Below, piece after piece: positions 3,788 through 63,197 of a DNA stretch of 64,000 bases. The DNA comes from Planctomycetota bacterium (GTDB taxonomy: Bacteria; Planctomycetota; MHYJ01; JACQXL01; JACQZI01), in assembly GCA_016207825.1 (NCBI GenBank), contig JACQZI010000017.1, positions 15,478 through 79,477 on the forward strand, read 5' to 3'. The notes beneath the pieces were generated by a model, which was given only the letters and a program-made list of their open reading frames with translations, searched no databases and had not been told where the DNA came from. The position numbers and the translations under genes are program-made. Each line of letters begins with the position of its first letter. Position 1 is the stretch's first letter.

Positions 3788-3789
3788 TT

Positions 3790-6829: not shown

Positions 6830-6916
6830 ATGAATTTTACAGGAATTCCGATTTTTGGATGTCACATTCTGGGTTTTTCCGGGTTAGGTTATGGAAAGAG
6901 AAAGAAAGAAATATGA
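6830..6916 (+). CDS. short upstream ORF (28 aa, MNFTGIPIFGCHILGF...) whose stop overlaps the start of the following peptide gene
   Basis: ATG 6830 sits inside a conserved GGAATTCC-core element. The TGA at 6914-6916 overlaps ATG 6913-6915 (ATGA). I cannot tell whether it is translated. Confidence 0.3.
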   Translation: MNFTGIPIFGCHILGFSGLGYGKRKKEI

Positions 6917-9091: not shown

Positions 9092-9124
9092 TAAGCTGTT
9101 AAATAGCTGTCTTTCGAGCATTTC

Positions 9125-10582
9125 ATGATAATACTACGCCGTATCAGCCAGTTTATTTTCTTCAGCCTCTTTATTTATCTCATTTTCCGGACGGTCAGCC
9201 CGCTTGCCTCGTGGATACCGGTTAACCTATTCTTTACGAGCGACCCATTGGTAGCAATCGGAGCCGGAATAGCCGGAAGGGCTTTGGTAATCAAGTTTAT
9301 CGCGGCATTGGTTGTAATCATTATCACCGTTCTTTTAGGCCGGGTCTTTTGCGGATGGATATGCCCATTGGGCGCGACGATTGACTGGTTTGACAAAGTA
9401 TTCCTGTGGTGGCGCAAGAAGCGGATTGTTATGTGGCTGGGCTGGCGGAAGGTAAAATACGCGATACTCGTTATCTTATTAACGGGCGCGGTTTTCGGGG
9501 TGAATGCCATCGGCTGGCTCGACCCGATTTCGATTGCCTTTAAAGGATACGGGCTTTTCATATATTCGGCACTGGACTGGGCAGGAACCAAAGTAGGCCT
9601 GGACAGAACCACCGTTTCAAGCCTGATTGATATTGGCATTTTTGACCGCAATGAGGTGTTATTCAAATACTCAGCGGTATTCGCGATTACCCTGGCAGTT
9701 ATCTTATTATTAAGCATGCTTGAGAGACGCTTCTGGTGCAGGAACCTTTGCCCTTTGGGGGCATTGCTTGGATTGCTTTCCAAATGGCGGCTGGTGCGCA
9801 CGCATACGGGAGAGGATTGCAACGAGTGCAAGCTGTGCGTCCGCACCTGCAAGATGGGGGCGCGGAGTAAGGAATTAGAGGCGCTGGATGAAGAGTGCAT
9901 ACATTGTTACACCTGCGTTAACGGATGCCCGAAGGACCAATTGTTTATAAAGAAGGCGGCTAAAGTAAAAACGGTTTCTATCCTGCCTTCAAGAAGAGGA
10001 TTTTTGATAAGCGGGATGCTGGGGATATTATCGTTCCCGCTTCTTAAATACAGCCTTTTAAAGAAGAAGGAAGAAAATCCTGTATTACCGATACTGAGGC
10101 CGCCCGGAGCGAATCCGGATGAGGAAAAATTCCTCGTCAAATGCGTCCGTTGTGGAGAGTGCATGAAGGTTTGCCCTTATAACGCAATACAACCGTTGAT
10201 GTTCGAAGGCGGTATTTACGGGATGTTTTCCCCGGTCATTATTCCGATTATAGGCTACTGCGGTTATGAATGTAACTTATGCGGACAAGCCTGCCCGACC
10301 GGCGCTATTAAAAACATGCCGTTAGCTGAAAAGAAGAAATGGAAAATCGGCACGGCAAAAACATATGAGGATATCTGTATAAACTGCCTGGTTTGCGAGG
10401 AATATTGCCCGGTCCCGGATAAAGCAATTAAGAATATAGAAAAGGACGGGCTTCAGTATCCCTGGGTAATAGATGAAATGTGCATCGGATGCGGGACATG
10501 CGAGAATGTCTGCCCGGCGTCGCCCCAAAAGGCGATAAGGGTGTTTAGAGACGCCAATCCTCCATCCAATCCCGCAAAATAG
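9125..10582 (+). CDS. polyferredoxin-like integral membrane 4Fe-4S protein (NapH/MauN-like)
   Basis: Has an N-terminal TM segment and FCGWICPLG, plus multiple CxxCxxCxxxCP clusters. Confidence 0.65.
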   Translation: MIILRRISQFIFFSLFIYLIFRTVSPLASWIPVNLFFTSDPLVAIGAGIAGRALVIKFIAALVVIIITVLLGRVFCGWICPLGATIDWFDKVFLWWRKKRIVMWLGWRKVKYAILVILLTGAVFGVNAIGWLDPISIAFKGYGLFIYSALDWAGTKVGLDRTTVSSLIDIGIFDRNEVLFKYSAVFAITLAVILLLSMLERRFWCRNLCPLGALLGLLSKWRLVRTHTGEDCNECKLCVRTCKMGARSKELEALDEECIHCYTCVNGCPKDQLFIKKAAKVKTVSILPSRRGFLISGMLGILSFPLLKYSLLKKKEENPVLPILRPPGANPDEEKFLVKCVRCGECMKVCPYNAIQPLMFEGGIYGMFSPVIIPIIGYCGYECNLCGQACPTGAIKNMPLAEKKKWKIGTAKTYEDICINCLVCEEYCPVPDKAIKNIEKDGLQYPWVIDEMCIGCGTCENVCPASPQKAIRVFRDANPPSNPAK

Positions 10583-11332: not shown

Positions 11333-11677
11333 CTACTTCTTAGCAGCCGGCTTGTCTTTTGCGCCCGCTTTGGGAGCGGCGGCAGCCGGAGCAGCGCCTT
11401 TGGCCGGGACGGCACCTGCTTTAGCCGGAGCACCTGCGGCAGCAGGAGCGGCACCCGCAACAGGGACGGCGCCCGGAGCAGCGGCGGCAGCTTCTTCCTT
11501 CTTAGCAGCTTTCTTGGCTTTGGGCTTGATATTCTTTACTTTCATCAAACCGAAAACCGAATTGGCTTCTTTCCACTTGCCTTCTTTGCCTAAATAAGCC
11601 AGGCGTTCGGCCCGTGAAAGCACATTACGATGCCTTTTAAGTTTGCCTGATAATACCAGACTTTTGTGAATCGTCAT
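11333..11677 (-). CDS. small basic protein with Ala/Pro/Lys-rich histone H1-like tail
   Basis: A ~50-aa basic N-domain followed by a low-complexity AAPAKAG tail. This tail creates the GC-rich simple repeat at about 11380-11510. Confidence 0.45.
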   Translation of the reverse strand: MTIHKSLVLSGKLKRHRNVLSRAERLAYLGKEGKWKEANSVFGLMKVKNIKPKAKKAAKKEEAAAAAPGAVPVAGAAPAAAGAPAKAGAVPAKGAAPAAAAPKAGAKDKPAAKK

Positions 11678-31870: not shown

Positions 31871-31961
31871 AATAATATTATACCAAACCGGACACTATTT
31901 AGCAATATTTTACTCTATTTAGCAATATTGTACATTAACCCCTACCCTACCTACCCACCCT

Positions 31962-32262
31962 CTGTACGGTAGGGAAGGGCGTTCTGTACGGTGGGGAGAG
32001 GTACTCCGTACGGTATGGAAGCATACTCTGTACGGTCAGGAGCGGTATTCCGTACGGTATGGAGACACGCTCTATACGGTCAGGAGTGGTATTCCGTACG
32101 GTATGGAGGCACACTCTGTACGGTCGGGAGTGGTATTCCGTACGGTATGGAGGCATACTCTGTACGGTCGGTATGAGTATTCTGTACGGTCAGGAGAATG
32201 CACCTGATGGGTATGGAGAAGTATTCGCTTGGGTATCCGGGCACCTTCGCTATGGAATACTG
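31962..32262. repeat. 22-bp (44-bp higher-order) tandem repeat array, about 13 units
   Basis: Alternating ccgtacggtatggaggcatact and ctgtacggtcaggagtggtatt units that decay at the distal end. The gene-proximal boundary is cctacccaccct. Confidence 0.9.
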
Positions 32263-32284
32263 GGATTCTCCCTTGGGGAGGATA

Positions 32285-32460
32285 GTTTTTTTAACCTGAA
32301 CCGACCCTAGTATAGATTAATCCCACCTCTTGTATAGATTACTACCCGTCCTAGTATAGATTACAGCACCCTCTTATAAGGATTATATCCCCCTCTCGTA
32401 TAGATTATATCTACTACCCGCATAGATTGTACTATCCTATTACAGAATATACTCCACCTC
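32285..32460. repeat. degenerate ~23-bp tandem repeat with GTATAGATTA core (about 7 units)
   Basis: tagtatagatta / cgtatagatta / catagattgta units, immediately distal to array 2. Confidence 0.6.
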
Positions 32461-32486
32461 ATCATGGGATATCCATCCGGTATTTG

Positions 32487-33289
32487 TCATACTTTAGAAG
32501 AAGTTCTTTCCATGCTCCGTTCTGTACACCCTTGTAATGGACACGTCGGACAGTAAAACCAGGATTTATAAACCTCACCTAACCGCCCGGTGAGTTTAGC
32601 CTCACGCATTATTTTAATGGCGTTTTTTAGTTTCTGGATAGCCTTATTTTGCACCTTAACTTTAAAGGTTTTGCCCGGATATTGGACCAATCCATATTTA
32701 GGCAATTTATTATAGGTGGCTTCCACTAAAAGCGCCTAGGCAATTAATTGCATCCGAACCGAACTATAAAGTTTTTTAGGCGGTGCGGCGGATTTAATTT
32801 CAACCGGTATGTAATTTTCGTCTTGTTTGATAACATAATCAGGATAGCCTCTGATAAAGTAACGAGGAGCCGAAAGCATTTTAGCATCTTTTACACTAAT
32901 TCCTTTATAAACGATTTCCCCTGCGGGCATATTTGTTTCATTTTGCAAGGCTTTTGCTGAATGCCTTAAAACATACCATATGATAAAAAATAAAAGCGCA
33001 ATAAATAAGAACCAATAAATCATCTTGTTTATTTAAGCATTAAGAGGATGATAAAAGCTAATAAAGACGAGAGTCCTATAATTAAGAATGCAACCGACCA
33101 CCGGCTATAGCTCTGTTCTTTTTTAACGTTATCCTGCTGATGGGCATGGAAGACTTCGCCTTTATGTAATAATTCAAGGTCTGCGGAAATGACACCGGTT
33201 CTCCTGAGCCACCAGGCATGAGGGCAATAAAAGAATTCATTGATTTCTGATGCGCTAACCCATATTTCTTCGCGTTTATCCGGTTCCAT
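32487..33289 (-). pseudogene. Cas4-like (DUF83) PD-(D/E)xK nuclease, disrupted (one frameshift in a hydrophobic segment and one in-frame TAG)
   Basis: Three collinear fragments. 33289-33029 carries WVSASEINEFFYCPHAWWL (Cas4 N-terminal Cys motif). 33023-32736 carries GYPDYV...PVEIKS (motifs I and II) and ends ...MQLIA-TAG, where the QhxxY Tyr is expected. 32726-32487 is in the same frame and has the C-terminal CPTCPLQGC cluster. Confidence 0.5.
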
Positions 33290-33331: not shown

Positions 33332-33687
33332 TTATAACCTCATTAATGTTTTGATATGTTTTTGCAATAGAACGAAATGATCTGATTCAAGCATGCCTAT
33401 TTTAGTTGTCAACTGCCTTCTATCGATTGCCATTATTTGAAACGGCAATAATACCGACTTCATTTTAAGGCCATTTACAGGTGAGGGCTCAACAGGGAAA
33501 GCAAATGGAAAACGAAGAGCCCCACTTGTTTAGTAAAAGGAATAATTACAATAGTCGGGAGAGTGGAATAATCATCTTCATCCTGAACTATAACAACCGG
33601 CCTGGGTCCGCTTTGCACATGCGTGTGTTGGTCTTTTGGAGAGGGTAAATTCGCGTAGACAATATCACCATTTTTAAATATCGCCAT
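33332..33687 (-). pseudogene. mazF: MazF/PemK-family endoribonuclease toxin gene with internal frameshift
   Basis: The N-terminal 70 aa (GDIVYANLP...GPRPVVIVQ...IIPFTKQ) match PemK/MazF. The C-terminal third (FPVEPS...VLLPFQIMAIDRRQL...) continues in another frame down to TAA at 33332. Confidence 0.55.
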
Positions 33688-50166: not shown

Positions 50167-51951
50167 CTACTTTCCGAAAACGGTTTCTATAACATACCCC
50201 GTATCATAACTGATTCTTACAGACAGAAATATAAGACGTCCATTAAGCGTGGCTTGAAAACTCTGAGCAATGGATCTAAAAACCCTATAAACAAAACTGC
50301 GTTGCGGCTTAAAATCAGAGACAAAACCATATGCCAATTCGTAAACAAGATGGGGATAGTGGCGCTGCGACCAGGCAGCCTCTTTGCCTTTAGCATAACT
50401 CATCTTAAGGATTTTAGTCATCGTTTCAGGCAAAGGATGATAAGCCCAGGTATGAGGAACAACAACCACCTTATAACCGGCCTTACGAACCCGGTAACGC
50501 AAGTCCGGGTCAGTTCCGCTTTTTAATTCATCGCTTTCCCACCCGATATCTTTGTATAGCTGGGTCGAAATCGCCAGGCACATATGGGAAACCATATCGC
50601 TTTCGGTAATCTTATCCACTATCGGGAAATATGTCCGCGGCAACTGCCTGGCGGCTATTTTTTGAAGATAACTGGAATTAGAAGGAATGAGTTGTGAAGC
50701 TCCGGTTAAACCTATTGGATTTTGTAATTTGGGATTTGGAGTTTGGCGACCGAAGGGAGCGATTAGATTTTCTATAACCTTATTATTACCAAGCGTCACA
50801 TCATCATCAATACAAACCAAATATTTCCCTTTTGCCTCCCGAACGCCTAAATTACGGGCATGCCCATTGGGCGAAACGCCTTTGATGATAATCACCTCAA
50901 TATCTCCGAAAATGGTTTGATTCTTGATGTCATCCAATAATTTTGGGACATTCCCTTTGCGGTAACCATCCAGCGACGGGATAATCACGGAAACCAGAGG
51001 CTTTTCTCTACTAACAATCACTTTCACTTGTTTGTCGCAATATTTAATTAAATCATCTTTAATCCTACTACAACCAAACCATTGTTTCAATCCAGAAACA
51101 ATTACTTCGTTCAAAAGGTTAATCACATATCCGATGCCATAAGAAATACGGACTGACAGGAAAACAAAATCACCCTTTATTATGGCTCTTAAATTATGCG
51201 TGATAAAACGCAATCCCCTATAGGCAAAACTTCTTTTATCCCTAAAAGAAGCGGCTGTTGCCGGAGGTGTCTCATAGATTAAATCCGGATAATACCAGAA
51301 ATCATGGGCCGCACCTTTCCCCCGCTGAAAAGACGTTCGTAAAAAAGCTATTAAGCTCAAAGGAGGCGGGTGATAAACCAAAGTATTAGGAACAATCACT
51401 ATTTTATAACCGGCTCGACGGACCCGATACCGTAAATCTGGGTCATCTCCATACATTAGATATTCATTTTCCTGCCCGACTTTTAAAAAAACATCTTTTC
51501 TTATCGCCATAGCCGCATGGGTAGCCATATCAGATTCTATTGGGGTCGAAATCTCCGGAAATTGTATGCGGGAAAATTCTTTTGCGCATTTCCTCTGAAA
51601 CCAATTAGCATCGGGTGGAATAAGCTGAGAAGTGCCTGTTATCCCAATAGATTTATCTTTAAAGATCGGATTAACAAGATTTTCTACTACCCTATTATTT
51701 CCCAAAACAATATCATCATCAAAGAACACTATTATTTCCCCTTTGGCCTTTTGGACGCCTGCATTATGGGCTCGTGAGCAAGGGGAAACTCCCTTAACAA
51801 GAATCAATTCGAAATCCTGGAATGTCTGCTTTCTGATATCCTCTATAAGCTTAGGGACATTCCCTCCCCGGTAGCCGTCAAAAGAAGGAATAACGACGGA
51901 AACTGACGGGTTTTCTTTGCTGATAATTACTTGGACAGTTTCTTTAAACAT
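50167..51951 (-). CDS. tandem two-domain family 2 glycosyltransferase
   Basis: Two GT2 modules (VSVVIPSFDG... and VSVIIPSLDG...), each with DDD/DxD motifs. Confidence 0.7.
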   Translation of the reverse strand: MFKETVQVIISKENPSVSVVIPSFDGYRGGNVPKLIEDIRKQTFQDFELILVKGVSPCSRAHNAGVQKAKGEIIVFFDDDIVLGNNRVVENLVNPIFKDKSIGITGTSQLIPPDANWFQRKCAKEFSRIQFPEISTPIESDMATHAAMAIRKDVFLKVGQENEYLMYGDDPDLRYRVRRAGYKIVIVPNTLVYHPPPLSLIAFLRTSFQRGKGAAHDFWYYPDLIYETPPATAASFRDKRSFAYRGLRFITHNLRAIIKGDFVFLSVRISYGIGYVINLLNEVIVSGLKQWFGCSRIKDDLIKYCDKQVKVIVSREKPLVSVIIPSLDGYRKGNVPKLLDDIKNQTIFGDIEVIIIKGVSPNGHARNLGVREAKGKYLVCIDDDVTLGNNKVIENLIAPFGRQTPNPKLQNPIGLTGASQLIPSNSSYLQKIAARQLPRTYFPIVDKITESDMVSHMCLAISTQLYKDIGWESDELKSGTDPDLRYRVRKAGYKVVVVPHTWAYHPLPETMTKILKMSYAKGKEAAWSQRHYPHLVYELAYGFVSDFKPQRSFVYRVFRSIAQSFQATLNGRLIFLSVRISYDTGYVIETVFGK

Positions 51952-52916
51952 TATTGCTTTTTAGCATGAATCACATAATGCAACCCCGCCCAACTAACCA
52001 ACGGGGCAAAGTGCGCTTCCATAAATGACGCTGTTTTTATAATCAACCGGACTAAAATATCCGGGAAAAACTGCAAATAGCTTTCATGGGGCATAATTAC
52101 GTTTTGCCGAAAGTTTTCTATGGAAAAACCGGCTTCTTTTAAATACCGTTTTAACTGCTTTTTGGTCGCCGGTTTGTCAAAGACCGCTTTTTCATTAGGG
52201 TTTGATTTTGGCGGAATAAACAATCTTTTTATCTTTTGGGGCAGCCAGAAAAAACCTTCCCAGAATCTGACCATAAAGCGGGACGGGGTGCTCATAAATA
52301 AGCGCCCGCCTTGCTTCAATACCCGATACATCTCTCTTATCGCCTTAGGCTTGTCAAATATATGCTCGATAACTTCAGAGGTAACGATTGCATTGAATAT
52401 TCCGTCTTTAAAAGGCAATGACTCCGCATCCCCTAAAATGCCGATTATGTTGGTTTTATTTTCTTCTTTAACGCGGTAATTAAGCCAATAAATATTGGGC
52501 AGGGCTGGGTCTATCCCTATCATATTTATATTAATATTACTATATTTATTCATGATATCAAAAAGGAAATAGCCGACCCCGCATCCGACATCAAGAATCA
52601 TATCATCATTTTGAGGCTTTAGCCAATCAATAATTTTACCTTTGACCCGTGAATACCGGTAATCGGCAACGTAACGCGGGTATCCGCCTGATTCCGCCCA
52701 ACCGTATTCATCTTTATAATACCCCATTTTCTCGTAGCCTTTTTCAAAGACGCTTAAATCCCATTCGCCTTTTTGGGTCACTCCGGTCCTCAGGTCAATA
52801 ATGCCATGGGAAATGGGATAAGAACGATGGCACAACAAACAAACCAGGGTTGGGCCTGATTTTAATTTCCCACGGCAGTTAGGGCAAACTAATATTTCTT
52901 CCGGATTCATAGCCAT
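51951..52916 (-). CDS. class I SAM-dependent methyltransferase with N-terminal zinc ribbon
   Basis: CPNC...C..C followed by a methyltransferase motif I (LDVGCGVG). Confidence 0.7.
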   Translation of the reverse strand: MAMNPEEILVCPNCRGKLKSGPTLVCLLCHRSYPISHGIIDLRTGVTQKGEWDLSVFEKGYEKMGYYKDEYGWAESGGYPRYVADYRYSRVKGKIIDWLKPQNDDMILDVGCGVGYFLFDIMNKYSNININMIGIDPALPNIYWLNYRVKEENKTNIIGILGDAESLPFKDGIFNAIVTSEVIEHIFDKPKAIREMYRVLKQGGRLFMSTPSRFMVRFWEGFFWLPQKIKRLFIPPKSNPNEKAVFDKPATKKQLKRYLKEAGFSIENFRQNVIMPHESYLQFFPDILVRLIIKTASFMEAHFAPLVSWAGLHYVIHAKKQ

Positions 52917-52920
52917 ATAT

Positions 52921-54024
52921 TTATTTCTTTATAAGTCCATCATACATTGCTTCCAATTCTTTAATCATCCTGGGATAGTTAAAAGATTCCTTTACCCGTT
53001 CATAGCCTTTTTGCCCCATTTTGTCCCTTAGTTCCTTGTTTTTAAGCAGTTTAATAATTGCTTGTGCTAAAGAACCGGAATCAGCCGGCGGCACTAAAAT
53101 TCCCGTAATACCGTTCGATACTACTTCAGGAATACCTCCAGCTTGAGTGGCAACGATAGCTTTTTTCATTGCCATGGCTTCCAAAAGAACTACCCCCAGC
53201 CCTTCGCTTAAAGAAGGTAATACGACTAAATCAAACAATGAAGTTAATTCAGAAATGTCGTTTCTCACGCCTAAAAACAAAATAGAATTAAACACGCCTG
53301 TTCCTTTAGCTTGTTTTTCCAATATATCTCTTAAATGACCTCTGCCAACAAATATGAATTTTACACTTGAGTACTCTTTTAAAACCAAAGGAATTGCTCT
53401 TATTAAATATCGATGCCCTTTAATGGAGGAAAGATTAGCTACCGTGCCAATCACAACTGAATCATCAGTAATTCCTAATGCCTGTTTCTTTTTTATCAAA
53501 GCTGCATTATTGACAACAAAATTATCTAAATCGATATTATTATATATTACATCTATTTTAGATGGGTTAATATTTGCTTTATCTGCAAAAGATGATTTTA
53601 CATATTTAGAAACAGCGATAGTTTTAGCGGTAAAACAGGAAATCATTTTTTCTGTAACTAACTCTGCTCTTGAACGTTTTTCAGTCGTATGATGCAATGT
53701 GGTAATTATTTCCGGGATACGCGCCAAAACAGCGGAAAGCCCGCCTATAACATTTGATGCCCAAAGATGAGTATGGACAATCTGAGTATGCTGTTTTCTC
53801 ATCAGCCAGGCCAATTTAAAGACTAGCCAAGGTTTCCATTTCCGCAGCCCTAAAACAACTACTTTTATTCCGGCATTTTCCACATCCGGAACTAATTCCC
53901 CTCCGCCAAACAGACAGCAAACCGTGATGTTATATTTAGTTTTATCCAGATGTTTAAGGGTATTAACAAAAATAGTTGGACCACCCATTCCTAAATCATC
54001 CACAACATACATTAAATTAATCAT
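52921..54024 (-). CDS. glycosyltransferase family 4 (group 1)
   Basis: GT-B fold with C-terminal EGLGVVLLEAMAM. Confidence 0.75.
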   Translation of the reverse strand: MINLMYVVDDLGMGGPTIFVNTLKHLDKTKYNITVCCLFGGGELVPDVENAGIKVVVLGLRKWKPWLVFKLAWLMRKQHTQIVHTHLWASNVIGGLSAVLARIPEIITTLHHTTEKRSRAELVTEKMISCFTAKTIAVSKYVKSSFADKANINPSKIDVIYNNIDLDNFVVNNAALIKKKQALGITDDSVVIGTVANLSSIKGHRYLIRAIPLVLKEYSSVKFIFVGRGHLRDILEKQAKGTGVFNSILFLGVRNDISELTSLFDLVVLPSLSEGLGVVLLEAMAMKKAIVATQAGGIPEVVSNGITGILVPPADSGSLAQAIIKLLKNKELRDKMGQKGYERVKESFNYPRMIKELEAMYDGLIKK

Positions 54025-54281
54025 TAGACATCTTACACAACAAGGCTTATAGTAATATTATCTCCTTTTCAGAAGGTTAGGTTCTATTGTAATCTTAATC
54101 GATTGCTCATTCTCAAATTTACTATCCCTGTAATTTGCTTGAATATCCGCTAATATTTCATTAACTCATTCCTGAATATCTCTTCAGGCAAATAATCTTT
54201 TCTATTTCTATCTAGACAGAGCCTTTACAATAAGGACAAATTAATCTCTTATTTAAATCTGATTTCATGATGTAATAATAT

Positions 54282-55091
54282 TTATACTCTATTAATTATC
54301 ATATTTTTCACATATTCCGTAAGCCCTTTATAAATAGTCCGGCGCCGTGAGCAGGGAGGAAACAACCGTCTATCAATATAGTGGCGAATCACGAATAATT
54401 TATCTACTAAGAATAATTCCAATGGATTATATAAAGAACGGTGTTTTTGCAATATCTGCCTAGCCGTTATCAAAACTTTTCCTCGCAACTTCGTCCTGGG
54501 TTTTTGTTTATGCACCCTAAAAAAAAGCAAGGGTTCGGGAAGTAATTTACCATAATACTTTTTTTCAGCAAAAGCAAGCCATAAATTCCATTCTTCAATA
54601 ACCGCGATAGATGGGTCACATCCGCCTGATTCAAGATAAGCCGATTTCTTTATCAAACCGCTTCCGTTAATAGATTGCCCTAATTTAAGATGCTTCAAAT
54701 TATATTCATCGTGTTTTACCAGCCCATTTATTGTGCCAAATAACGTCATATAAGTATATACAAACGTAACATTATGTTTCAACAAGACAGAAAGTGTTTT
54801 TTCTACATAAGATGGGTGGATTTTATCATCGGCATTTAAAATGACACAGTATTCACCTGTTGACGCCAAAACCCCATTATTAAAAGTCGTTCCTGCTCCC
54901 TTGTGAACCTGATTAATTAATCTCACCGGATATTTCTGCGCAACTTCTATGGTATTATCCGTTGACCCATCGCTTATCACAATAATCTCAATTGGCTTAT
55001 AAGTCTGATTAAGGGCGCTTTCAATCGCCTCACTTAAATAACACCCGTAATTATAGCACGGGATAATAATACTTACTAACGGGATATTCAT
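54282..55091 (-). CDS. glycosyltransferase family 2
   Basis: VSIIIPCYNYG...DGSTD...DADD motifs. Confidence 0.75.
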   Translation of the reverse strand: MNIPLVSIIIPCYNYGCYLSEAIESALNQTYKPIEIIVISDGSTDNTIEVAQKYPVRLINQVHKGAGTTFNNGVLASTGEYCVILNADDKIHPSYVEKTLSVLLKHNVTFVYTYMTLFGTINGLVKHDEYNLKHLKLGQSINGSGLIKKSAYLESGGCDPSIAVIEEWNLWLAFAEKKYYGKLLPEPLLFFRVHKQKPRTKLRGKVLITARQILQKHRSLYNPLELFLVDKLFVIRHYIDRRLFPPCSRRRTIYKGLTEYVKNMIINRV

Positions 55092-55099
55092 TCTTTTAT

Positions 55100-55810
55100 C
55101 TAATTTGATTTACCCATTAAATACAACTGCGCGCAATATTCCGGTATTTCTTTGCCTATTTCATAAAAGGCATCAAGCGTTTCTTTATCCCATCCCATCA
55201 TTTGTTGGTTAGACAATGGTTTCAAGAAAACGCCTTCGATTATTCCCGTCTTTAACCCTGCTTTTTTAATATCCGTTTGTAAGGCCATTAAGGAATAATA
55301 TCGGCGATGCCCGATAAGGTAATCCTGCTTCTGAAGTTGGTCTAATCTTTTTATTAATCCCATTGCCTTACCAATTCTCCTGTGCAATGAATGGGCATTC
55401 GGGACGATGAGATGAATCCGCCCATGGGGCGCAAGCCACCTTTTCACACGCTTGAGCAATTTAACAGGGTTAGCAACATGTTCCAGAATACTTGACATTA
55501 TGATATCATTAAACTTTTCTTTAGGCGTAAAATCTTCAAAGAGCGCGCAGATAAATTCCGCCTTTTTTGGGTTCACGAATTTCATGGTTTCTCTTATATA
55601 TAACGGCGAACCTTCTACAACAGTGAGACCGGGAAATCGTTTAACTAATTCCTCCGTCATTACACCGCTCCCGCAACTCATCTCCAAAACAGCCGGCCCG
55701 CCTATATGCTTAAGAATAGTTTTAGCCCCGTATTTAATAAGATGATAATCAAAACTTTTCCTGCTTTTATACCAGCGGGCGTTCGCCTTCAACTTTTTAT
55801 GTTCATTCAT
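55100..55810 (-). CDS. class I SAM-dependent methyltransferase
   Basis: EMSCGSG motif I. I moved the start to the Met at 55810 to avoid a 98-nt overlap with the upstream HAD gene. The longest ORF extends to 55900. Confidence 0.55.
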   Translation of the reverse strand: MNEHKKLKANARWYKSRKSFDYHLIKYGAKTILKHIGGPAVLEMSCGSGVMTEELVKRFPGLTVVEGSPLYIRETMKFVNPKKAEFICALFEDFTPKEKFNDIIMSSILEHVANPVKLLKRVKRWLAPHGRIHLIVPNAHSLHRRIGKAMGLIKRLDQLQKQDYLIGHRRYYSLMALQTDIKKAGLKTGIIEGVFLKPLSNQQMMGWDKETLDAFYEIGKEIPEYCAQLYLMGKSN

Positions 55811-56351
55811 AAATATAAGTGGTAACACCGGCATTTTTGCCAGCTTCTTTATCAGCATTAGTATTCCCGATAAATAAAATATCTTTATTAGATACCCCAT
55901 AAAAAGATATTATTTTCTTCAGCCCTTCGGAAGACGGTTTTGGGTTGGTTACATCTTCCTTGCTTATAATACAACTAAAGAATGAGGATAACCCAAGCCG
56001 TTTCAAACTATATTCAATCGCTCTTTTAGTATTGGAAGAAAATATCGCCATATTCGGCACATACCGTTTCTTGATAAATCCAATCATTTCCTGTTTTAGA
56101 TTGCCTGTTTTCACCCCGTTTATCTCTTCATCCGCAATCATATTAATCAGTTTAGAATAAGCATCTTGCCCGAATTTATTCTTTATTAATATCAGGCTTT
56201 CATCTAATCGGTTGAAATCGCAATCATAATTATATTCTTTCAGGGTGCGCCGATGAAGTCTTTCTTTAAGGCAAGCCCAGTCTACATCCAAATCAATAAT
56301 GGTTCCGTCAAGGTCAAATACGATAAGTTTTATATTTTCCGGGATTTCCAT
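55803..56351 (-). CDS. HAD-superfamily hydrolase
   Basis: N-terminal motif I, FDLDGTI. Confidence 0.7.
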   Translation of the reverse strand: MEIPENIKLIVFDLDGTIIDLDVDWACLKERLHRRTLKEYNYDCDFNRLDESLILIKNKFGQDAYSKLINMIADEEINGVKTGNLKQEMIGFIKKRYVPNMAIFSSNTKRAIEYSLKRLGLSSFFSCIISKEDVTNPKPSSEGLKKIISFYGVSNKDILFIGNTNADKEAGKNAGVTTYIYE

Positions 56352-57391
56352 CTCTCGCCTTTCACTAATATCGGGCCTTTATCCGGGAGACGAATCCAGT
56401 ATAGATTTTCCGGCAAGGCGTTATATTGCTTTAATTGGGGCAGTTTCTCTCCATAGGCAAGTTTAACATAATAATAAGGCATATTAACGCCTGCCAGGGA
56501 AAAGAAATTACTGGTGGTGAAAAACCTGCCGGCATTAACTTCTGTTACGCAGGGCATTCCCTTCTCGTTTTCCTTCATATCCACGCAAAAAACACCGGTC
56601 GCCTTCTTATCTATGCCCAGGATAGCCCTCGCCGCAATCCGGTTAACATCGCGCCGATGGACAGTCGCCGCTACGGATGGGCTGGAAGATTGCCCGCTGG
56701 GAAAGAGATTTCCCATATAATACTCTAATCTTGACCGTGCCTGGGAAGTAACCAGTTTTCCATCCTTCCATAAGCTCTGAAAGGCAAATTCCCGTCCCGG
56801 CAGGTATTCCGCCAGCATAAAATCCTTTGATTCCAGCCGTTTCGTAGCACGCCAGTAATGTATCCACTCCTTAGCTTGCCTGAAAGACCGGACGGGCAAA
56901 GCCGCCTTGGAACCGGCTCCCTTTATTGCCCTTAACCAAACCACTTCATTTCTCTTCTGCAGCTTTTTCATTATATCGGGAATATCTTCAATCCTGCCTA
57001 TTTGATAAGAAAGGGGAATCGGTATTTTATTACGGCTTAAAATTACATTGGTTGCTAATTTACTGCGGCAAACCCGAAGCGTCTCCTTTGCCGGTAAAAA
57101 CACCCGTGCGGAAACTTTCTCCCTGTTTTCGGAAATAATATCCAATTCTATATCCGGCTGGGTATGAACCATCTCTATCTTTTCTTTTTCAATCAGCCCG
57201 TTAAGTTTATCCATATAATCGGGTTCGTTATAGTAAGGCAGGATATAACCTTTATCAATCCGGGGCAGCTCCAGATGCCACCGGTTAATATCGCCCCCCA
57301 CGATATAAAACGATTCTTTAGACATTCTTAGAGACTCTATAAAATTAATTCCAGCCGACCCGCCTGCGCCGGTAACTAAAATACGTTTCAT
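56330..57391 (-). CDS. ATP-grasp domain protein
   Basis: VTGAGGSAG N-terminus and an ATP-grasp-like central region. Substrate unknown. Confidence 0.5.
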   Translation of the reverse strand: MKRILVTGAGGSAGINFIESLRMSKESFYIVGGDINRWHLELPRIDKGYILPYYNEPDYMDKLNGLIEKEKIEMVHTQPDIELDIISENREKVSARVFLPAKETLRVCRSKLATNVILSRNKIPIPLSYQIGRIEDIPDIMKKLQKRNEVVWLRAIKGAGSKAALPVRSFRQAKEWIHYWRATKRLESKDFMLAEYLPGREFAFQSLWKDGKLVTSQARSRLEYYMGNLFPSGQSSSPSVAATVHRRDVNRIAARAILGIDKKATGVFCVDMKENEKGMPCVTEVNAGRFFTTSNFFSLAGVNMPYYYVKLAYGEKLPQLKQYNALPENLYWIRLPDKGPILVKGERWKSRKI

Positions 57392-57406
57392 AAGCTTTTC
57401 TCCTGT

Positions 57407-58978
57407 TTACGAAACACTAAATTTTGCCATTACCTTTTCCAGCCATGGCAAACGGTTTTGGAATAACAGCAAAACATCCATTTTATCCAACGGCTTAATG
57501 TAACAAAGCGCGATAAAGTATCCGCCCCAGAATAATACCGCCTGGATTATCAAAACGACTCCGGCAGTAATACGGGCAGATTCAATGGATAATTGATTGG
57601 ATAAAGCGGGCAAAAACCACAACGGCATCCCTAAAACAAGGCACAACATTGTTGTTTTCAGAAAGGTGGTTTTGATAAAATAACCCATCGGCAAATGGAT
57701 TATCTGATGCATTCTTCTAAAGTAATAAAAGGAAGCAATAAACCAGGATGCCATTGTTCCTAAAGCCGCTCCTAACAAGCCGAATTTAATAATGAAGAAA
57801 ACGCTTAAAGGAAGGTTAATCAGGACATTGATTAAACCCGCATGCATCTCTACTTCCGGATGCCCGATTCCACGCAAAAGCTGGTTGCCGATTCCTCCGG
57901 CTAAGACGGAAGCAAGATGCCCGATAGCAAGCAGTTGGGCAATGCGAACGGAATCCTCATACCCTTCCCCCATCCAGACCATCATTATCTGCGAGGCGGA
58001 CACAATCACGAAGGTAAAAAACGGCAGGGCGATTAATGAAAGATATTTACTGGTCCGTTTATAGCCTTCGATTAATTTTTCCCGCTCACCCCGCCCATCC
58101 ACCTCTGAAAAAGCAGGCAGTAAAACAGAAGCAGGCAACGTAACGATTCCCTTTACCGTTCCGGTTAGGCAGTTTCCCAATTGGTAAAAAGTCACCAAGC
58201 CTATCGGCAAAAAATATCCTATTAATAATTTATCTACGCTAAGGGTTATCATTGAATATATGGAGGCGAGCTGGATTTTATAGCCGAATGTAATCAGGCG
58301 TTTAAACATATCTCCTTTTGACATTAAAAAACCGAAGCGGAAAGAAGGCAAAACCCTAAACGAGATTATGAAATTTACCAAGCCGCCCAACAAAACAATT
58401 ATTATCCTGTTAAGCATTAATCCCGCCAATCCGTATCCCATCTCTAAAAACAATATCGTTCCGATAATATTGGGGAAAGAAACCGCGACGCTTACTTTGC
58501 TTGAAATATCCATTCTCTGTAACCCCATCGGGACGCTCTCAAAAACCGCTGAAACATTTACTAAAGCCATTGAAATCATTCCAAGCATTAACACCAACCG
58601 GGCTTCACCGGCTAATTCCTGAGGGATTTTGAAAATGCCCAGTAACGGGCCGATAAGCAAAAAAGCCGCGCCGGTTATCACTATTCCGAATATGAGGTAA
58701 AAAACAAATCCGGTATTAACAACCTGGTTGATTTTATCATCTTCTTTCCGGGCATAATATTCAGAAATATACTTTATGAATGAAGACCGGATTCCAAAAT
58801 CCAATAATCCGAAATAACCGGTCAAGACTCCGACAATCGCCCAGACTCCGAAACGCTCTACCCCGATACGATTAATGATATACGGGGTCAACCCAAGCAT
58901 GACCAGCATACCCCAAAACTGTCCGATTAAGTTATAAACGGTATTGCGAAACACCTTTCGTGATAGGCTCTGTTCCAT
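57407..58978 (-). CDS. polysaccharide biosynthesis flippase (Wzx/MOP superfamily)
   Basis: About 12-14 TM helices and an N-terminus typical of oligosaccharide flippases. Confidence 0.7.
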   Translation of the reverse strand: MEQSLSRKVFRNTVYNLIGQFWGMLVMLGLTPYIINRIGVERFGVWAIVGVLTGYFGLLDFGIRSSFIKYISEYYARKEDDKINQVVNTGFVFYLIFGIVITGAAFLLIGPLLGIFKIPQELAGEARLVLMLGMISMALVNVSAVFESVPMGLQRMDISSKVSVAVSFPNIIGTILFLEMGYGLAGLMLNRIIIVLLGGLVNFIISFRVLPSFRFGFLMSKGDMFKRLITFGYKIQLASIYSMITLSVDKLLIGYFLPIGLVTFYQLGNCLTGTVKGIVTLPASVLLPAFSEVDGRGEREKLIEGYKRTSKYLSLIALPFFTFVIVSASQIMMVWMGEGYEDSVRIAQLLAIGHLASVLAGGIGNQLLRGIGHPEVEMHAGLINVLINLPLSVFFIIKFGLLGAALGTMASWFIASFYYFRRMHQIIHLPMGYFIKTTFLKTTMLCLVLGMPLWFLPALSNQLSIESARITAGVVLIIQAVLFWGGYFIALCYIKPLDKMDVLLLFQNRLPWLEKVMAKFSVS

Positions 58979-59046
58979 GATTTTTATATTATCTAATTAT
59001 TCTTTAAAATACAACCATTTTATACAACAGTGTAACCTTAAAAAGA

Positions 59047-59928
59047 TTATAGCGCCTGTCTTTTACGGGCATAGACGGTGATAAAATCCCACCTTTTTAA
59101 CAGCTTTATCGCCAAGCCATGCACAATCGGGCGCGCCCAATTCAGGTATTTTATTGCCTTGAGCAACGGATTCGGGCGTGTTTTGCCCTCCGCGCCCTTA
59201 TTTAATAATCCCGTCCCGCCTTCTCTGACAGACTTAATGATTCCGAATCCGTTTTCGGAAAGCAGTTTGGTTAAGGTTTCTTTGGAGAAGTGATATAGAT
59301 GAATCTTGGGAACTAAATTCACCCAGCGTTCCTTCATCCGGCGGGCATTGCCGGAATTGATATCCGGAACGGTTATCACCAAAAGCCCGTCCGCTTTTAA
59401 AAGGCGCGCCGCTTTTTGGATAGCCTGCTTGGGCAAAGGCAGATGCTCCAGGACATGATACATCGCGATAACATCAAAAAAGCTATCAGGGAAAGAAGCA
59501 TCTTCAAGATTGCCGGTAACGACGTTTAATCCCAATTTATTCCGTGCATAATCAGATGCCCAGGGAGATATTTCCACCCCATAAGGCTCCCAGCCGTATT
59601 CCCGGGCGACATCGAGGAATCCGCCTGTGGCACAGCCGATTTCCAGTATTTTCCCGGAACGCTTGAATTTCATTATGCCTCTTAACCGCCTTTGGGCATC
59701 GGCGTAGAAAAGCTCTTTGTTTTGGATGTAATCGAAGCTGGGAACATCCGGCGAGGACTGGTTCCTGAAATAATCCTCCGAATAAAGACGGGCGCGCTCG
59801 TCATCAGACAGGCGCGGATTGGTGTAGACCAGGCCGCATTTAAGGCAACGGACGACCTTTAAATCGGATATGGTATAGACCGCTTCCGCCTTATCCGCTC
59901 CACAGAGCGCACAGGAAACATATTCCAT
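59047..59928 (-). CDS. class I SAM-dependent methyltransferase with N-terminal zinc ribbon
   Basis: C.LC....C..C followed by a methyltransferase motif I (LEIGCATGG). Confidence 0.7.
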   Translation of the reverse strand: MEYVSCALCGADKAEAVYTISDLKVVRCLKCGLVYTNPRLSDDERARLYSEDYFRNQSSPDVPSFDYIQNKELFYADAQRRLRGIMKFKRSGKILEIGCATGGFLDVAREYGWEPYGVEISPWASDYARNKLGLNVVTGNLEDASFPDSFFDVIAMYHVLEHLPLPKQAIQKAARLLKADGLLVITVPDINSGNARRMKERWVNLVPKIHLYHFSKETLTKLLSENGFGIIKSVREGGTGLLNKGAEGKTRPNPLLKAIKYLNWARPIVHGLAIKLLKRWDFITVYARKRQAL

Positions 59929-60147
59929 ATATGATTTTATCGGGTTATCCCATAAGGAGCGTTAGGGATACTTGGCATAGAAAAATATCCCGCCTTGCGA
60001 CCAGAGGCTATAGTCCACGAAGTGGGAAGTCCCCGTAGGTGGCGGGGACGGCTAAAACGCATATATTCGTTTGCATCTCAATTAAATGAGGTTTCAAAGG
60101 CAGGGGGGTGGTGCTACTCCCCCCTCAACTTAGGGCTAACTACTCAT

Positions 60148-60409
60148 AAATACGGTGAGACCCCATCTCAAATGCGGAGGGACTCCATGGCAAATGCGGA
60201 GGGACTCCATCTTAAATGCGGTGATGCCCCATCTCAGATGCGGTGAGACCCCATCTCAAATGCAGAGAGACTCCATCTTAAATGCGGAGAGACCCCATCC
60301 CAAATGCGGAGGGACTCCATTCCAAATCCAGAGAGACCCCATCTTAAATGCGGAGAGGCTCCATGGCAAATGCGGTGGGACTCCATCTTAGATGCGGAGG
60401 GACTCCATG
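60148..60409. repeat. 22-bp tandem repeat array (about 12 units, consensus aaatgcggagggactccatctt)
   Basis: Head-to-tail units with no spacers. The sequence family differs from arrays 1 and 2 but the period is identical. Confidence 0.9.
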
Positions 60410-60564
60410 ATAGTAACGGTGGTATAGCCCTATCCAAAAATGAATTCCAGAAAACGAGACTTGCTTGCAGTGAGGAACGAATCCAACCGAATATAGGCGA
60501 TACACCACGGGAAAATCAAGCATTAGAAGATGTGGGAGGCGGTACGCTTTCGGATACCATTATA

Positions 60565-62427
60565 TTAATTAAAACTTTTGTTTATCTCTACAAATAGAGG
60601 GATAAAACTCTCGGAAGCCTTAACAGAGCCATTTAACAACGAATTAGCATAATGAATTGCGACACCATTTTTATTAAAGTCTTTAGATAATTTCAGTTTA
60701 AAGTACTGCATTAGTTTTCTTCCTAATGTCCAATTGCTATCGATGCTTAATGAGCAATCATTAAATTTATCAGGTGTTATAGGAGTAAACCAATCAAATC
60801 CCTGATAAAAATCATTTACTGATTTTATATAGATGTCTATGCCGACAAGGTCTTCTATTGATTCGTTTTGATTAGAAGAACCCGTAATTTGATTAATTTC
60901 AATAGTTGGAGTGTGGCATTTTTCAGCTACTTTAATCATATCTTTATTTCCATCATCGCTATCACATAGAACAATTGACTTTTTGTTCTGACTACTAGCC
61001 GTTTTCAGGAATGGTTCTAAAGCCGCACCATCGTTACATGGAATAATGCTTATTTTAGTTAAATCAAGATGCGTTTTCCCATTAGACTTAAAATAATCCG
61101 AAATATTAGCTAAAATTACCTGATCTGATATGCCCTCAACAAAAATATTCTGTTCTCCCAGAAAACCTAAATCGCCAAAGGAAACCCCAATAGACACTTT
61201 TAGAGGATCCCATATATTAAGAAATTTATTTTCATCCCTTGGCGCATAGGGCTTATTATCAATCTTAGTCGCTTTGGTTTTAGGATTTCTGGTAAACAAT
61301 CTAATCCGTTGCGGGAAATTCCAATCTATCATAAAAGGAGAATGGGTAGAATATGCAACTTGATGTTTCTGTGACAATTCATTTAGCATCTTTACAACAA
61401 TGCGTTGTGCGTTAGGATGCAAATTACAGGCTGGCTCATCAAATAAAACAATGGTCTGATTTTCTAATTTTTGGATAAACAAATATTCTATAACAAACGT
61501 TAAAAACCAATTGAGACCTGTCCCGTAATAGCGCAGTTTATTCTCGTCTCGTATCTGTGCTGTTAGAAGAAAACTATTTCTCTTGTAACTGGATTCTTTA
61601 CTGTGACTATTCCCCGCTAGCCTAATCTCGAAAGTAAGATCTGCAGGATCCCTCCACCACTTTTGCAAAACACCTGTTATTTTTTCAGATAATTCCTTTA
61701 ATTTTTGTTCTATTTCCTCTTGAGTAAGATTTAATGGCCTTAGCCGTGGTGAATTATGCTTCGTAGTTTCAGCCCACGGCGCATCTACATTGTGGTTTGC
61801 TCTAATGTTAGCTTTTAAATCTACAATTGAAAGCAGTAATTTTTCCGTAGTAAAAGGCATAAATTCACTAGGTTGATCAGATAGAGGGGTTTCTGTAATG
61901 CATGGACCTGTTTCATAAAATTGTGCTTCAAATAGTTCATTTAGTGCAACTTTTTCAGAAAGATTAATATATCTTATCTTTGGCAAAACAGATTGTTCAA
62001 AGTTTCTCATATCTTCTGTAATAGCCGGAAACTCTGTATTATCTTCATAGATATTGATATTTTCTGTATCGGCTAATAAAGAATATGATTGGTTTTTAGG
62101 TATATCCGAACGATGCTGATAACAAATTGTAATTAGTTTTGGTTTTTTATTCCCTAATAGTTGAGTGAACTTATCGTTTTTGATATCCTTATCTTCAACT
62201 ACCCACAATGAATTAAATCTTATACTGTTTGGATCTGCATTTTTTAACTGGCTTATATCCCAACCGGCCATGCCACCGTTTTTTATGTATTGGTCAAATA
62301 ATCGGTGAAGTATGCTCGTTTTTCCTGTATCATTCTTGCCAATAAGAACTGTTACATAAGGATCAAAAGATAAAGACTGATTTATAAAATGTCTAAATTG
62401 ATGTAGTTTTATTTCTTTTACTTTCAT
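60565..62427 (-). CDS. OLD-family ATP-dependent endonuclease (ABC-type ATPase + Toprim), standalone
   Basis: Walker A GKNDTGKTSIL, Walker B/D-loop VLFDEPACNLHP, H-loop STHSP, C-terminal Toprim (IFVEGISDQVIL ... VLCDSDDGN). The gene is AT-rich. Confidence 0.75.
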   Translation of the reverse strand: MKVKEIKLHQFRHFINQSLSFDPYVTVLIGKNDTGKTSILHRLFDQYIKNGGMAGWDISQLKNADPNSIRFNSLWVVEDKDIKNDKFTQLLGNKKPKLITICYQHRSDIPKNQSYSLLADTENINIYEDNTEFPAITEDMRNFEQSVLPKIRYINLSEKVALNELFEAQFYETGPCITETPLSDQPSEFMPFTTEKLLLSIVDLKANIRANHNVDAPWAETTKHNSPRLRPLNLTQEEIEQKLKELSEKITGVLQKWWRDPADLTFEIRLAGNSHSKESSYKRNSFLLTAQIRDENKLRYYGTGLNWFLTFVIEYLFIQKLENQTIVLFDEPACNLHPNAQRIVVKMLNELSQKHQVAYSTHSPFMIDWNFPQRIRLFTRNPKTKATKIDNKPYAPRDENKFLNIWDPLKVSIGVSFGDLGFLGEQNIFVEGISDQVILANISDYFKSNGKTHLDLTKISIIPCNDGAALEPFLKTASSQNKKSIVLCDSDDGNKDMIKVAEKCHTPTIEINQITGSSNQNESIEDLVGIDIYIKSVNDFYQGFDWFTPITPDKFNDCSLSIDSNWTLGRKLMQYFKLKLSKDFNKNGVAIHYANSLLNGSVKASESFIPLFVEINKSFN

Positions 62428-62654: not shown

Positions 62655-62807
62655 GATGAATATAAACGAGCTGGAGGAGAAATATGAGAAATTTTCATGG
62701 AATTCCAAGATTTTAGGTCAGATTTCACCTCCTCGTGCAAATAACACTATAGCTGGGGGCGGCAAGAAAGCCCGCCTAACGGCGAGGCAGGTAGTGAGCA
62801 GCGAGTA
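62655..62807 (+). CDS. hypothetical small ORF (50 aa)
   Basis: AGAGGA RBS. Preceded by the ccccgatattcatcgggg hairpin and overlapping a GGAATTCC-core element. Coding status uncertain. Confidence 0.2.
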
Positions 62808-62966
62808 GCGGGCAGTGAGGATGACGGGTAATGAGGATGCCGGAAAAGACCGGATATTTTTAAGATTCTTTGTTACTTTAGCCGGTTTTTGGACTGTATA
62901 AGTGGAGGGAAGGGTTAGAAATAACCAATTCCCAAATAACAATGACCAATTAAATAGAAAGGAAAT

Positions 62967-63035
62967 ATGAAGAATTTTAAAGGGATTCCGATTTTCCATG
63001 TAACATTCGGCGTTCCTGACCTATATACCTTATGA
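62967..63035 (+). CDS. short upstream ORF (22 aa, MKNFKGIPIFHVTF...)
   Basis: AAAGGA RBS. The first 14 codons are protein-level similar to the mini-ORF at 6663, with synonymous differences. Confidence 0.3.
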   Translation: MKNFKGIPIFHVTFGVPDLYTL

Positions 63036-63053: not shown

Positions 63054-63197
63054 ATGATTAGGAGATTAAGAAAAATGATATATTTTCATAGAATTCCAAG
63101 ATTTTACCGCAAAAGGCAGGGGGGTCAAGCGAATAATAGTATGGAGGGACGGTGAACCACGAAGGGTTCACCGCAAGTATCCCTTAAATGGAGGTAA
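63054..63197 (+). CDS. short upstream ORF (47 aa, basic) ending 3 nt before the peptide gene start
   Basis: Strong GGGAGG RBS. It spans a GGAATTCC-core element and the conserved ggtgaacc...ggttcacc hairpin. Translation not established. Confidence 0.3.

Follow-up and report, generated by a model that had tools for sequence, protein, structure and literature searches.

Direct repeats phased at 22 bp are the usual format of protein-bound iterons, which are found in plasmid and phage replication origins such as those of R6K, pPS10, RK2 and the lambda ori inside gene O. A period of 21-22 bp is also seen at the sites of LytTR regulators (AgrA, ComE, PlnC, AlgR), where direct repeats of about 9 bp are separated by a spacer of 12-13 bp upstream of the -35 element, with two and rarely three repeats per site. 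Longer runs of contiguous binding repeats, about 7 to 12, occur in F sopC and in the omega heptad arrays of pSM19035; each run carries one cooperative complex, and the omega arrays double as promoter operators. Tandem units scattered over a chromosome are known from the mycobacterial interspersed repetitive units (MIRU), with units of 46-101 bp that are similar across loci, occupy tens of loci per genome and keep one orientation relative to the flanking genes. Here we analyze a 22-bp tandem array, array 3, in a 64,000-nucleotide stretch (the window) of contig JACQZI010000017.1 from a Planctomycetota metagenome-assembled genome (MAG; GCA_016207825.1), and describe the family of arrays with the same period in which it probably belongs.

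Transposed families of non-coding satellites are rare in prokaryotes, with two found among 261 genomes (Subirana & Messeguer 2019, PMC6749651), and the copy number of Mycobacterium tuberculosis tandem repeats is reported to be phase-variable (PMC12817950). Our literature search on 22-bp repeats in Planctomycetes returned no description of arrays such as those presented below.

Results

Array 3 and its position

Tandem Repeats Finder (TRF) places array 3 at 60148-60408, with a period of 22, 11.9 copies, 78% matches, 0% indels and a score of 284, together with a weaker 66-bp super-period (81% matches). Read in register, the array comprises 13 units of 22 bp (60134-60419; minus-strand consensus CCGCATTTGAGATGGAGTCTCT), with one degenerate unit, beginning CCGT, at each edge. 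Its self-identity is 0.75 at lag 22, which makes it the most homogeneous of the arrays examined, and 0.13-0.34 at all remaining lags between 5 and 26. The units are contiguous and without spacers, unlike those of a CRISPR array, and no cas domains were found among the scanned window proteins. A reading in terms of 11-bp half-sites (OmpR/PhoB-like) was tried and dropped: sub-periodicity at lag 11 is absent from array 3 and is weak (lag-11 identity 0.34) in a single sister array, that of contig L027.

An earlier reading made from the sequence alone (hereafter the sequence-only reading) had placed about 12 copies of a 22-bp unit upstream of a glycan operon at 50.2-59.9 kb and just downstream of an OLD nuclease gene. 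Our annotation bears this layout out. Downstream of the array, 219 nt separate it from the ATG (59928) of a methyltransferase gene, the first in a Pfam-supported cluster that spans 50167-59928; on its upstream side, the stop (60565) of the OLD-family gene is 156 nt away.

A family of arrays with an exact 22-bp period

We scanned the whole window by autocorrelation at lag 22 and found four periodic segments only (6141-6306, 31922-32280, 32273-32472 and 60085-60460), the last of which is array 3. Arrays 1 and 2 were also detected by TRF (31983-32226 and 32310-32411), while array 4 (6148-6323) is too degenerate for TRF and was detected by the lag-22 scan. Array 1 (31969-32211, minus strand) is built of units CCGTACAGAGTATGCCTCCATA alternating with CCGTACGGAATACCACTCCTGA; next come an inverted G-rich box, a promoter and an HTH_17 gene (31870-31307). 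Array 2 (32306-32430) has the plus-strand unit GTATAGATTACATCCCCCTCTT; its polarity is ambiguous, and its plus strand agrees with the canonical array 1 unit at 14/22 positions. Array 4, taken together with its G-box GGGAGGGTGGGGATGGGGGGTAG (6148-6345, plus strand), has about eight degenerate units with a CCGTA core and lies upstream of a small Cys open reading frame (ORF) and of a gene for a 264-aa protein.

By following paralogs of this 264-aa protein we reached additional arrays. Two of them lie on further contigs of the same MAG, recognized by the HY811 locus tags that it shares with the window (window protein HY811_07150). The L027 array (1927-2234) has 14 units and lies 640 nt upstream of the paralog HY811_05965; the L029 array (1680-1960) is degenerate and lies between divergent genes, upstream of a PIN-like gene. 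The other two come from related organisms: the L030 array (4630-5010; Joint Genome Institute (JGI) metagenome) has 15-17 units and precedes a paralog 63% identical in protein, and the L033 array (922-1232; a related metagenomic organism) is of ambiguous polarity. In all, about 87 kb of this MAG were examined and hold six arrays at five loci; by extrapolation, each genome might carry hundreds. One further weak lag-22 signal (L154, 7268-7437) proved to be A-rich promoter DNA and was rejected as an array.

All eight arrays, from at least three organisms, peak in autocorrelation at lag 22 only. The sequence-only reading had proposed a common structural constraint or a common generating mechanism behind the equal period, and the enlarged sample fits a shared constraint, a shared origin, or both. 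Neither lag-22 arrays nor phased CCGT clusters were found in 138 kb of unrelated control genomes, and the phased CCGT clusters that we did find have a period of 22 or its derivatives and never one of 18-21 or 23-26.

Four arrays (1, 4, L027 and L030) align in one register and on one strand, with position weight matrix (PWM) z-scores of 2.9-7.4 (5-7 for array 4 against the other three). When their information is pooled with equal weight per array, it resides at positions 1-5 (CCGTA), 8-9 (GA), 12, 17-19 (TCC) and 22 (A), and the rest is near random. This common core covers about 10 of the 22 positions; arrays 3, L029 and L033 differ from it strongly. The phasing is seen most directly in L030, in which 15 otherwise very divergent units each begin with CCGT or CCCT at exact 22-bp steps.

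In the orientation set by the core, these arrays are closed by a G-rich box, which repeats the last units in inverted form. The last units of array 4 form perfect inverted repeats of 9 and 11 bp with the G-box, and the end of array 1 forms a 22-nt inverted repeat with 77% complementarity. The hairpin that follows the L029 array (TAGGGGGGTA/TACCCCCCTA) has a perfect 10-bp stem, with TTTTTT 10 nt beyond it. Arrays 4, L027 and L030 have in common the string GGGGGG(A/T)GTAGTGGTC ... TTATAAAACAAGGAGATAC, and the module of array, GGGGGG(A/T)GTAGTGGTC and TTATAAAACAAGGAGATAC precedes, in two organisms, paralogs only 63% identical in protein. Since neutral DNA would not be expected to retain such a module at this distance, the period, the core and the end box appear to be under purifying selection. 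Canonical G-quadruplex motifs are present after array 4 (GGGAGGGTGGGGATGGGGGG, plus strand, 6324-6345) and array 1 (GGGTGGGTAGGTAGGGTAGGGG, minus strand, 31940-31968). A G-quadruplex was rejected as a universal end feature, being found after neither array 3 nor the L027 array.

Each of the four core arrays is directed at the next gene on the same strand; two more (array 3 and L029) are so directed by their inferred polarity, and two (array 2 and L033) are ambiguous. Array 1 is followed by TTGCTA-17-TATAAT with an ATG 6 nt on, and the L029 array by TTGACA-17-TAAAGT with an ATG 8 nt on; judged by their layout, both look like leaderless promoters. The genes that the sister arrays precede are unrelated to one another (an HTH_17 gene, a PIN-like gene and members of the 264-aa family), and housekeeping genes such as ArfB, Fmt and BamA are among the neighbours. 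The 264-aa family is found next to three arrays; its AlphaFold2 model is confident (predicted local distance difference test score 86.9) but has no known fold, and no relatives of the family were found in viral contigs. A family of 22-bp arrays thus exists with a strict period, a core in four of its members, polarity and conservation across organisms.

Array 3 probably belongs to the family

By whole-unit PWM, array 3 has no significant similarity to the other arrays (best z = 1.0-1.3), and to this extent its unit is indeed unrelated to theirs, as the sequence-only reading had claimed. The claim does not extend, however, to the core, the edges and the flanks. The minus-strand consensus matches four of the five core positions (CCG.A), and both edge units read CCGT; ancestral-looking edges of this kind are what unequal crossing-over would leave in place. 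The array 3 unit also aligns with that of the L029 array (TTTGAGA-GGAGTCTC), in one orientation only (p=0.002).

The flanks link array 3 to two sister arrays and, through a hairpin, to a third. When the minus-strand downstream flank was aligned locally to the G-box that follows the L030 array, none of 500 shuffles scored as well (p<0.002). The flank contains, right after the array, a G-box with the potential to form a hairpin (60102-60125, minus strand; AGGGGGG-N10-CCCCCCT, an inverted repeat at 7/7 positions), which includes AGGGGGGAGTAG, the box found after the L030 array, and is the sole exact occurrence of GGGGGGWGTAG in the window. Its G6-N10-C6 hairpin resembles the hairpin after the L029 array. 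On the other side, the 11-mer TCATTTTTGGA (60433-60443, minus strand) is located 13-24 nt before the first unit and recurs before the L027 array (Smith-Waterman p=0.004), a match that becomes borderline once corrected for 16 tests.

On this evidence array 3 is probably a member of the family and probably lies in minus-strand polarity, a direction that the flank and sister-array matches indicate without proving it. Beyond the relatives described here, the unit pattern AAATGCGGWGRGACYCCAT gave eight single chance matches and no arrays in 185,579 species genomes, 12 single chance matches in JGI metagenomes and none in IMG/VR.

Genes on either side of array 3

With the minus-strand polarity, the element would be directed at the glycan operon, rather than at the OLD-family gene or at the plus-strand paralog cassette that begins at 63188. 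We also considered that array 3 might belong to this rightward cassette, with the OLD gene inserted between them. The plus-strand flank of the array is unlike the post-array flanks of the family (p=0.35-0.92), which leaves this assignment unsupported.

The glycan operon (50167-59928, minus strand; GC 34-47%) encodes a class-I methyltransferase (start 59928), a Polysacc_synt flippase, an ATP-grasp protein, a HAD protein, a methyltransferase, GT2, GT4/GT1, a further methyltransferase and GT2, as assigned by Pfam, including on the contig L001 from the Logan assemblies. Five nucleotides before the methyltransferase ATG we read a candidate -10 hexamer, TAAAAT (59934-59939, minus strand), which has a poor -35 and was not listed by the promoter scan; its analogues are the TTGCTA-17-TATAAT-6-ATG of the HTH_17 gene and the TTGACA-17-TAAAGT-8-ATG of L029. 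With this candidate -10 next to the ATG, the methyltransferase mRNA would be leaderless. Between the array 3 hairpin and the methyltransferase start, at 60029-60049, GTCCCCG-TAGGTGG-CGGGGAC can pair into a perfect 7-bp stem around a 7-nt loop.

The gene on the other side (60565-62427, minus strand) is a stand-alone ATPase-TOPRIM gene of the OLD family (Pfam AAA_15 and OLD-like_TOPRIM), whose best PADLOC matches are AriA, Old and GajA. It has a GC content of about 35%, compared with 42-47% in its surroundings, has no partner gene and sits alone on a 2.3-kb contig in two assemblies. It is probably a recently acquired defence gene, and it is no part of the repeat element.

Other features of the window and of related contigs

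Upstream of each cassette of the 264-aa family we found two to three copies of a leader motif of about 38 nt, ATGA.AAATTTTCATGGAATTCC.AGATTTTA, which contains GGAATTCC. In the window its copies lie at 6653-6690, 6821-6858, 62678-62715, 62961-62998 and 63069-63106; it is also present in L027 and, as a variant, in L033. The motif matches no Rfam family, and a Logan contig break at 62685 falls inside one of its copies. The L033 leaders at 3365-3802 and 1232-1518 share ATCTGCGGATTTCC.GATTTTGACCACCTTGAA.AGTAGA upstream of a 235-aa gene and of the 258-aa family member, a shared stretch that may represent a conserved promoter or leader.

Two 20-bp direct repeats, CTATTTAGCAATATTGTACT, at 31895-31933 overlap the TTGCTA-17-TATAAT promoter, whose -10 is followed by the HTH_17 ATG after 6 nt; they look like an autoregulatory operator on a leaderless HTH_17 gene. 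To the right of arrays 1 and 2, the segment 32487-34673 contains small minus-strand ORFs, among them a PemK-like toxin fragment (33475-33687), a Cas4-like N-terminus (33029-33289) and a 238-aa protein without a family, and resembles a toxin-antitoxin or defence islet in decay. Apart from the arrays, the window has a single periodic segment, with a period of 18 bp (11343-11515; TRF rows 11384-11489), which is probably a coding repeat rich in Ala, Pro and Gly.

Discussion

A proposed phased protein-binding array

Given the short core, the exact two-turn spacing, the free linkers, the terminal inverted copy and the polarity toward a promoter, we read these arrays as cooperative protein-binding arrays. 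We assign a probability of roughly 45% to array 3 being one copy of a lineage-specific, dispersed and polar cis-element that consists of phased protein-binding sites; both the binding of a protein and the effect of the arrays on transcription are what we infer from sequence. In such an element, 5-17 sites at an exact spacing of 22 bp (about two helical turns) would be followed by a GC-rich inverted box or hairpin and then by the promoter region of the next same-strand gene. Each unit would be the docking site of a sequence-specific DNA-binding protein, which in the main subfamily would recognize the bases CCGTA..GA.......TCC..A; neighbouring molecules would be expected to cooperate in binding and to line up along roughly one face of the helix. 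Activation, silencing or insulation of the downstream promoter might follow from the nucleoprotein stretch so formed, and in the case of array 3 about 13 sites would serve the glycan operon. Units within one array would be homogenized by unequal exchange, with the edges keeping the ancestral CCGT, while separate arrays would drift apart at the positions that are not contacted until the period alone is retained. Such concerted evolution would account for the array-specific units.

Several observations weigh against this reading. The unit of array 3 shows no significant similarity to the core subfamily, and its interior units begin with CCGC rather than CCGT, so array 3 may bind a different protein, or none. 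Its flank matches extend over only 11-12 nt and become borderline once corrected for multiple testing, and there is one contrary match, between its left flank on the plus strand and the pre-array flank of L029 (p=0.01). The polarity of array 2 and of the L033 array is ambiguous. Between the end of array 3 and the start codon there are 219 nt, and the promoter scan found no good sigma-70 promoter beside its hairpin. None of the 40 window proteins scanned is of LytTR, Rep or ParB-like type, and the 264-aa family has no recognizable DNA-binding fold. Finally, the census covers only about 87 kb of the genome.

A broader version of the protein-binding reading, which we regard as doubtful, would see in the arrays a genome-wide cis-regulatory or chromatin-like system. 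Hundreds of polar, 22-bp-phased arrays with inverted GC boxes at their ends would serve as loading platforms for a DNA-binding protein, or for paralogs with array-specific units, by which the expression of the gene downstream would be set or insulated; array 3 would be the platform of the glycan operon, with a unit number that possibly varies in the population.

A possible dispersed minisatellite

The alternative that survives best, although we hold it to be rather unlikely, is a neutral or selfish dispersed minisatellite of the kind of MIRU, BOX and the Leptospira satellites, spread through intergenic DNA, in which the period is inherited from a common ancestor and not selected, the neighbouring genes are unaffected and unequal crossing-over homogenizes the units. 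We do find several loci per genome with related intergenic tandem units, to which array 3 is tied by its period, edges, flanks and match to L029, and many of the loci adjoin functionally unrelated genes. The arrays also show signs of concerted evolution, namely homogeneous units within arrays, divergence between arrays and ancestral-looking edges, and their conserved flank boxes recall boxA and boxC of BOX elements. Dispersed non-coding satellite families are, moreover, documented in prokaryotes, though rare (PMC6749651). Neutral homogenization would nevertheless not be expected to leave a short, exactly phased core in units that are scrambled elsewhere, as in L030 and L027, nor to keep array and G-box before paralogs at 63% protein identity in different organisms. 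The consistent orientation to the downstream gene speaks against it as well, and no target-site duplications or terminal inverted repeats were recognized.

A possible contingency locus

The sequence-only reading had regarded array 3, as a tandem repeat upstream of a surface-glycan operon, as a classic phase-variation substrate. Gain or loss of units by slippage or recombination would then alter expression of the glycan operon and create surface heterogeneity. This proposal does not hold up well, and we consider it improbable. Agreement between units is only 78%, and no exact repeat within the array is longer than 23 nt. The array occupies neither a promoter spacer (-35 to -10) nor a reading frame; its period is no multiple of 3, and it lies 219 nt away from the ATG. 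Changes in steps of 22 bp (about two turns) would roughly keep the helical phase and would therefore make a poor on/off switch. The sister arrays precede unrelated, non-surface genes, so the link to a surface glycan is incidental.

Support for the proposal comes only from the assemblies and from an internal repeat. Logan assemblies use k=31, and in the MAG version of array 3 no 25-mer or 31-mer is repeated, so the graph should cross the array if the population were uniform. The assemblies of SRR12113402, -05 and -06 all stop 9 nt into array 3 from the left, and two restart 11-15 nt before its right end, which suggests heterogeneity of the array within the population; the flanks are clonal, the Logan contigs of the three runs being identical to the window outside array 3 (0-1 mismatch in 40 kb). 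The interior copy number thus comes from the MAG assembly alone, with the first 9 nt and the last 11-15 nt confirmed by Logan contigs. A 23-nt exact direct repeat (60153-60175 and 60241-60263), whose copies are 88 bp apart, could mediate a deletion of four units, and array 3 is the array in which homogeneity is highest. On the other hand, the 41,203-bp Logan contig that corresponds to window positions 18954-60156 and ends in array 3 crosses arrays 1 and 2 unchanged, which are thus identical between the MAG and an independent contig. A break also falls within array 4, very degenerate as it is, where a different Logan contig stops 29 nt short of a G4-like run; contig breaks are therefore no specific evidence of a change in copy number. 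No variant arrays were recovered by exact look-ups of two array-encoded ORFs or by a homology search with a 97-aa ORF that spans the array edge.

A possible RNA-level element

An action at the RNA level has, in our estimate, little probability too. Transcribed with or after the upstream gene, the array and its GC hairpin would form a 3' untranslated region, a terminator, an insulator or a repeat RNA by which an RNA-binding protein is titrated. Of six arrays, five have co-directional genes on both sides and share their orientation, a strong GC hairpin ends every array (60102-60125 for array 3; likewise L029 and array 4), and no terminator was detected between the OLD gene and array 3. The L029 array, by contrast, lies between divergent genes, and the hairpins have no canonical U-tracts. 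Neither strand of array 3 folds more stably than shuffled sequence (z = -0.04 and +1.16), and Rfam gave nothing at the gathering score over the whole window, nor at E<=1 over 59850-60650. The small hairpin that a unit could form has a 4-bp stem, which by manual inspection is broken in most units and shows neither compensatory changes nor covariation. A sponge RNA of the CsrB/RsmZ kind for CsrA was considered for the GGA that occupies the potential loop in about half of the array 3 units; since there is no covariation and the folding z is about 0, the hairpin and the sponge were dropped, the stem not being maintained and no Rfam family matching.

A disfavoured reading as origin or centromere of an integrated replicon

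In a last reading, which is strongly disfavoured and verges on the negligible, array 3 would be the iteron origin or a centromere-like site of a plasmid, phage or integrative and conjugative element that integrated here and brought the OLD gene. Array 3 does have direct repeats phased at about 22 bp with 0% indels, with its terminal inverted copy it resembles iteron replicons and F sopC, a phage O gene contains an array of the same period, and the adjoining OLD gene is AT-rich and looks acquired. But the neighbours of the array are the OLD and methyltransferase genes without an initiator, no Rep, integrase or tRNA lies nearby, and the 40 window proteins scanned include no ParA/ParB. In addition, blastn of the intergenic region gave no plasmid similarity, the unit has no match in viral contigs, and arrays of the same kind (at least six at five loci) occupy chromosomal positions beside ArfB, Fmt and BamA.

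Implications

If the arrays are phased binding platforms, their regulatory architecture would be a new one, in a phylum about whose transcriptional control almost nothing is known, and the 5-nt core, the exact 22-bp spacing, the conserved end box and the defined polarity would offer a testable handle on the binding protein and its regulon. If they are selfish satellites, they would join the two dispersed non-coding satellite families found among 261 genomes (PMC6749651) as a third case of a kind that is rare in prokaryotes, and they would be a practical source of assembly breaks in MAGs of this kind. The tandem repeat upstream of the glycan operon is no evidence of phase variation unless read-level data accompany it. 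The arrays taken as a family are of more interest than array 3 by itself, but their function is entirely inferred.

Comparison with known systems

Iterons are likewise direct repeats with a strict period of about 22 bp, a contacted core, variable linkers and often an inverted copy near the downstream promoter. They differ in number and setting: there are one or two iteron arrays per replicon, beside a rep gene and with an AT-rich unwinding element, whereas the arrays described here are dispersed next to unrelated genes with no initiator nearby, and without an initiator gene array 3 is not an iteron origin. For comparison only, we scanned IMG/VR for four phased copies of CCGTW. More than 120 contigs have 22-bp arrays containing this motif, mostly near-perfect arrays unrelated to those of the family. 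One of the viral contigs (L075, IMGVR_UViG_3300045738_000477) carries an imperfect 22-bp array, CCGTTTTCGGGTAAGT..., CCGTTTT..., at 9101-9240 inside a Phage_rep_O gene, that is, a lambda-type origin within the initiator gene.

Regulator sites offer a second comparison. The L030 units ACCGTTTAG fit the published LytTR consensus, [TA][AC][CA]GTTN[AG][TG], and AlgR sites start with CCGT as well, a motif resemblance that serves as a lead. The arrays here differ from LytTR sites in having 5-17 repeats, the window has no LytTR gene, and CCGCATTTG of array 3 is a poor fit. The sopC and omega arrays are tied to partition genes of the ParA/ParB or ribbon-helix-helix type, none of which is found here, and have units of 43 bp or 7 bp.

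In their distribution, the arrays share with MIRU and variable-number tandem repeats the dispersed intergenic placement and the constant orientation to the flanking genes; they differ from MIRU by their 22-bp units and by the strong divergence between loci outside a core of 5-10 nt. Pneumococcal BOX elements (boxA-boxB(n)-boxC) and the satellites of Leptospira interrogans and Methanocella conradii likewise combine variable tandem units between conserved end boxes with intergenic scatter. Those systems conserve the sequence of the repeat, whereas here what stays constant is chiefly the period, along with a short core and the end boxes, and the element is kept before diverged paralogs in different organisms. 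With a unit sequence that is not conserved between loci, the arrays are not a family of the MIRU/BOX type, and the imperfect, misplaced units of array 3 do not suit a phase-variation repeat. Overall, the family would be most like iteron and operator arrays in the way it works, and most like MIRU, BOX and dispersed satellites in its genomic lifestyle.

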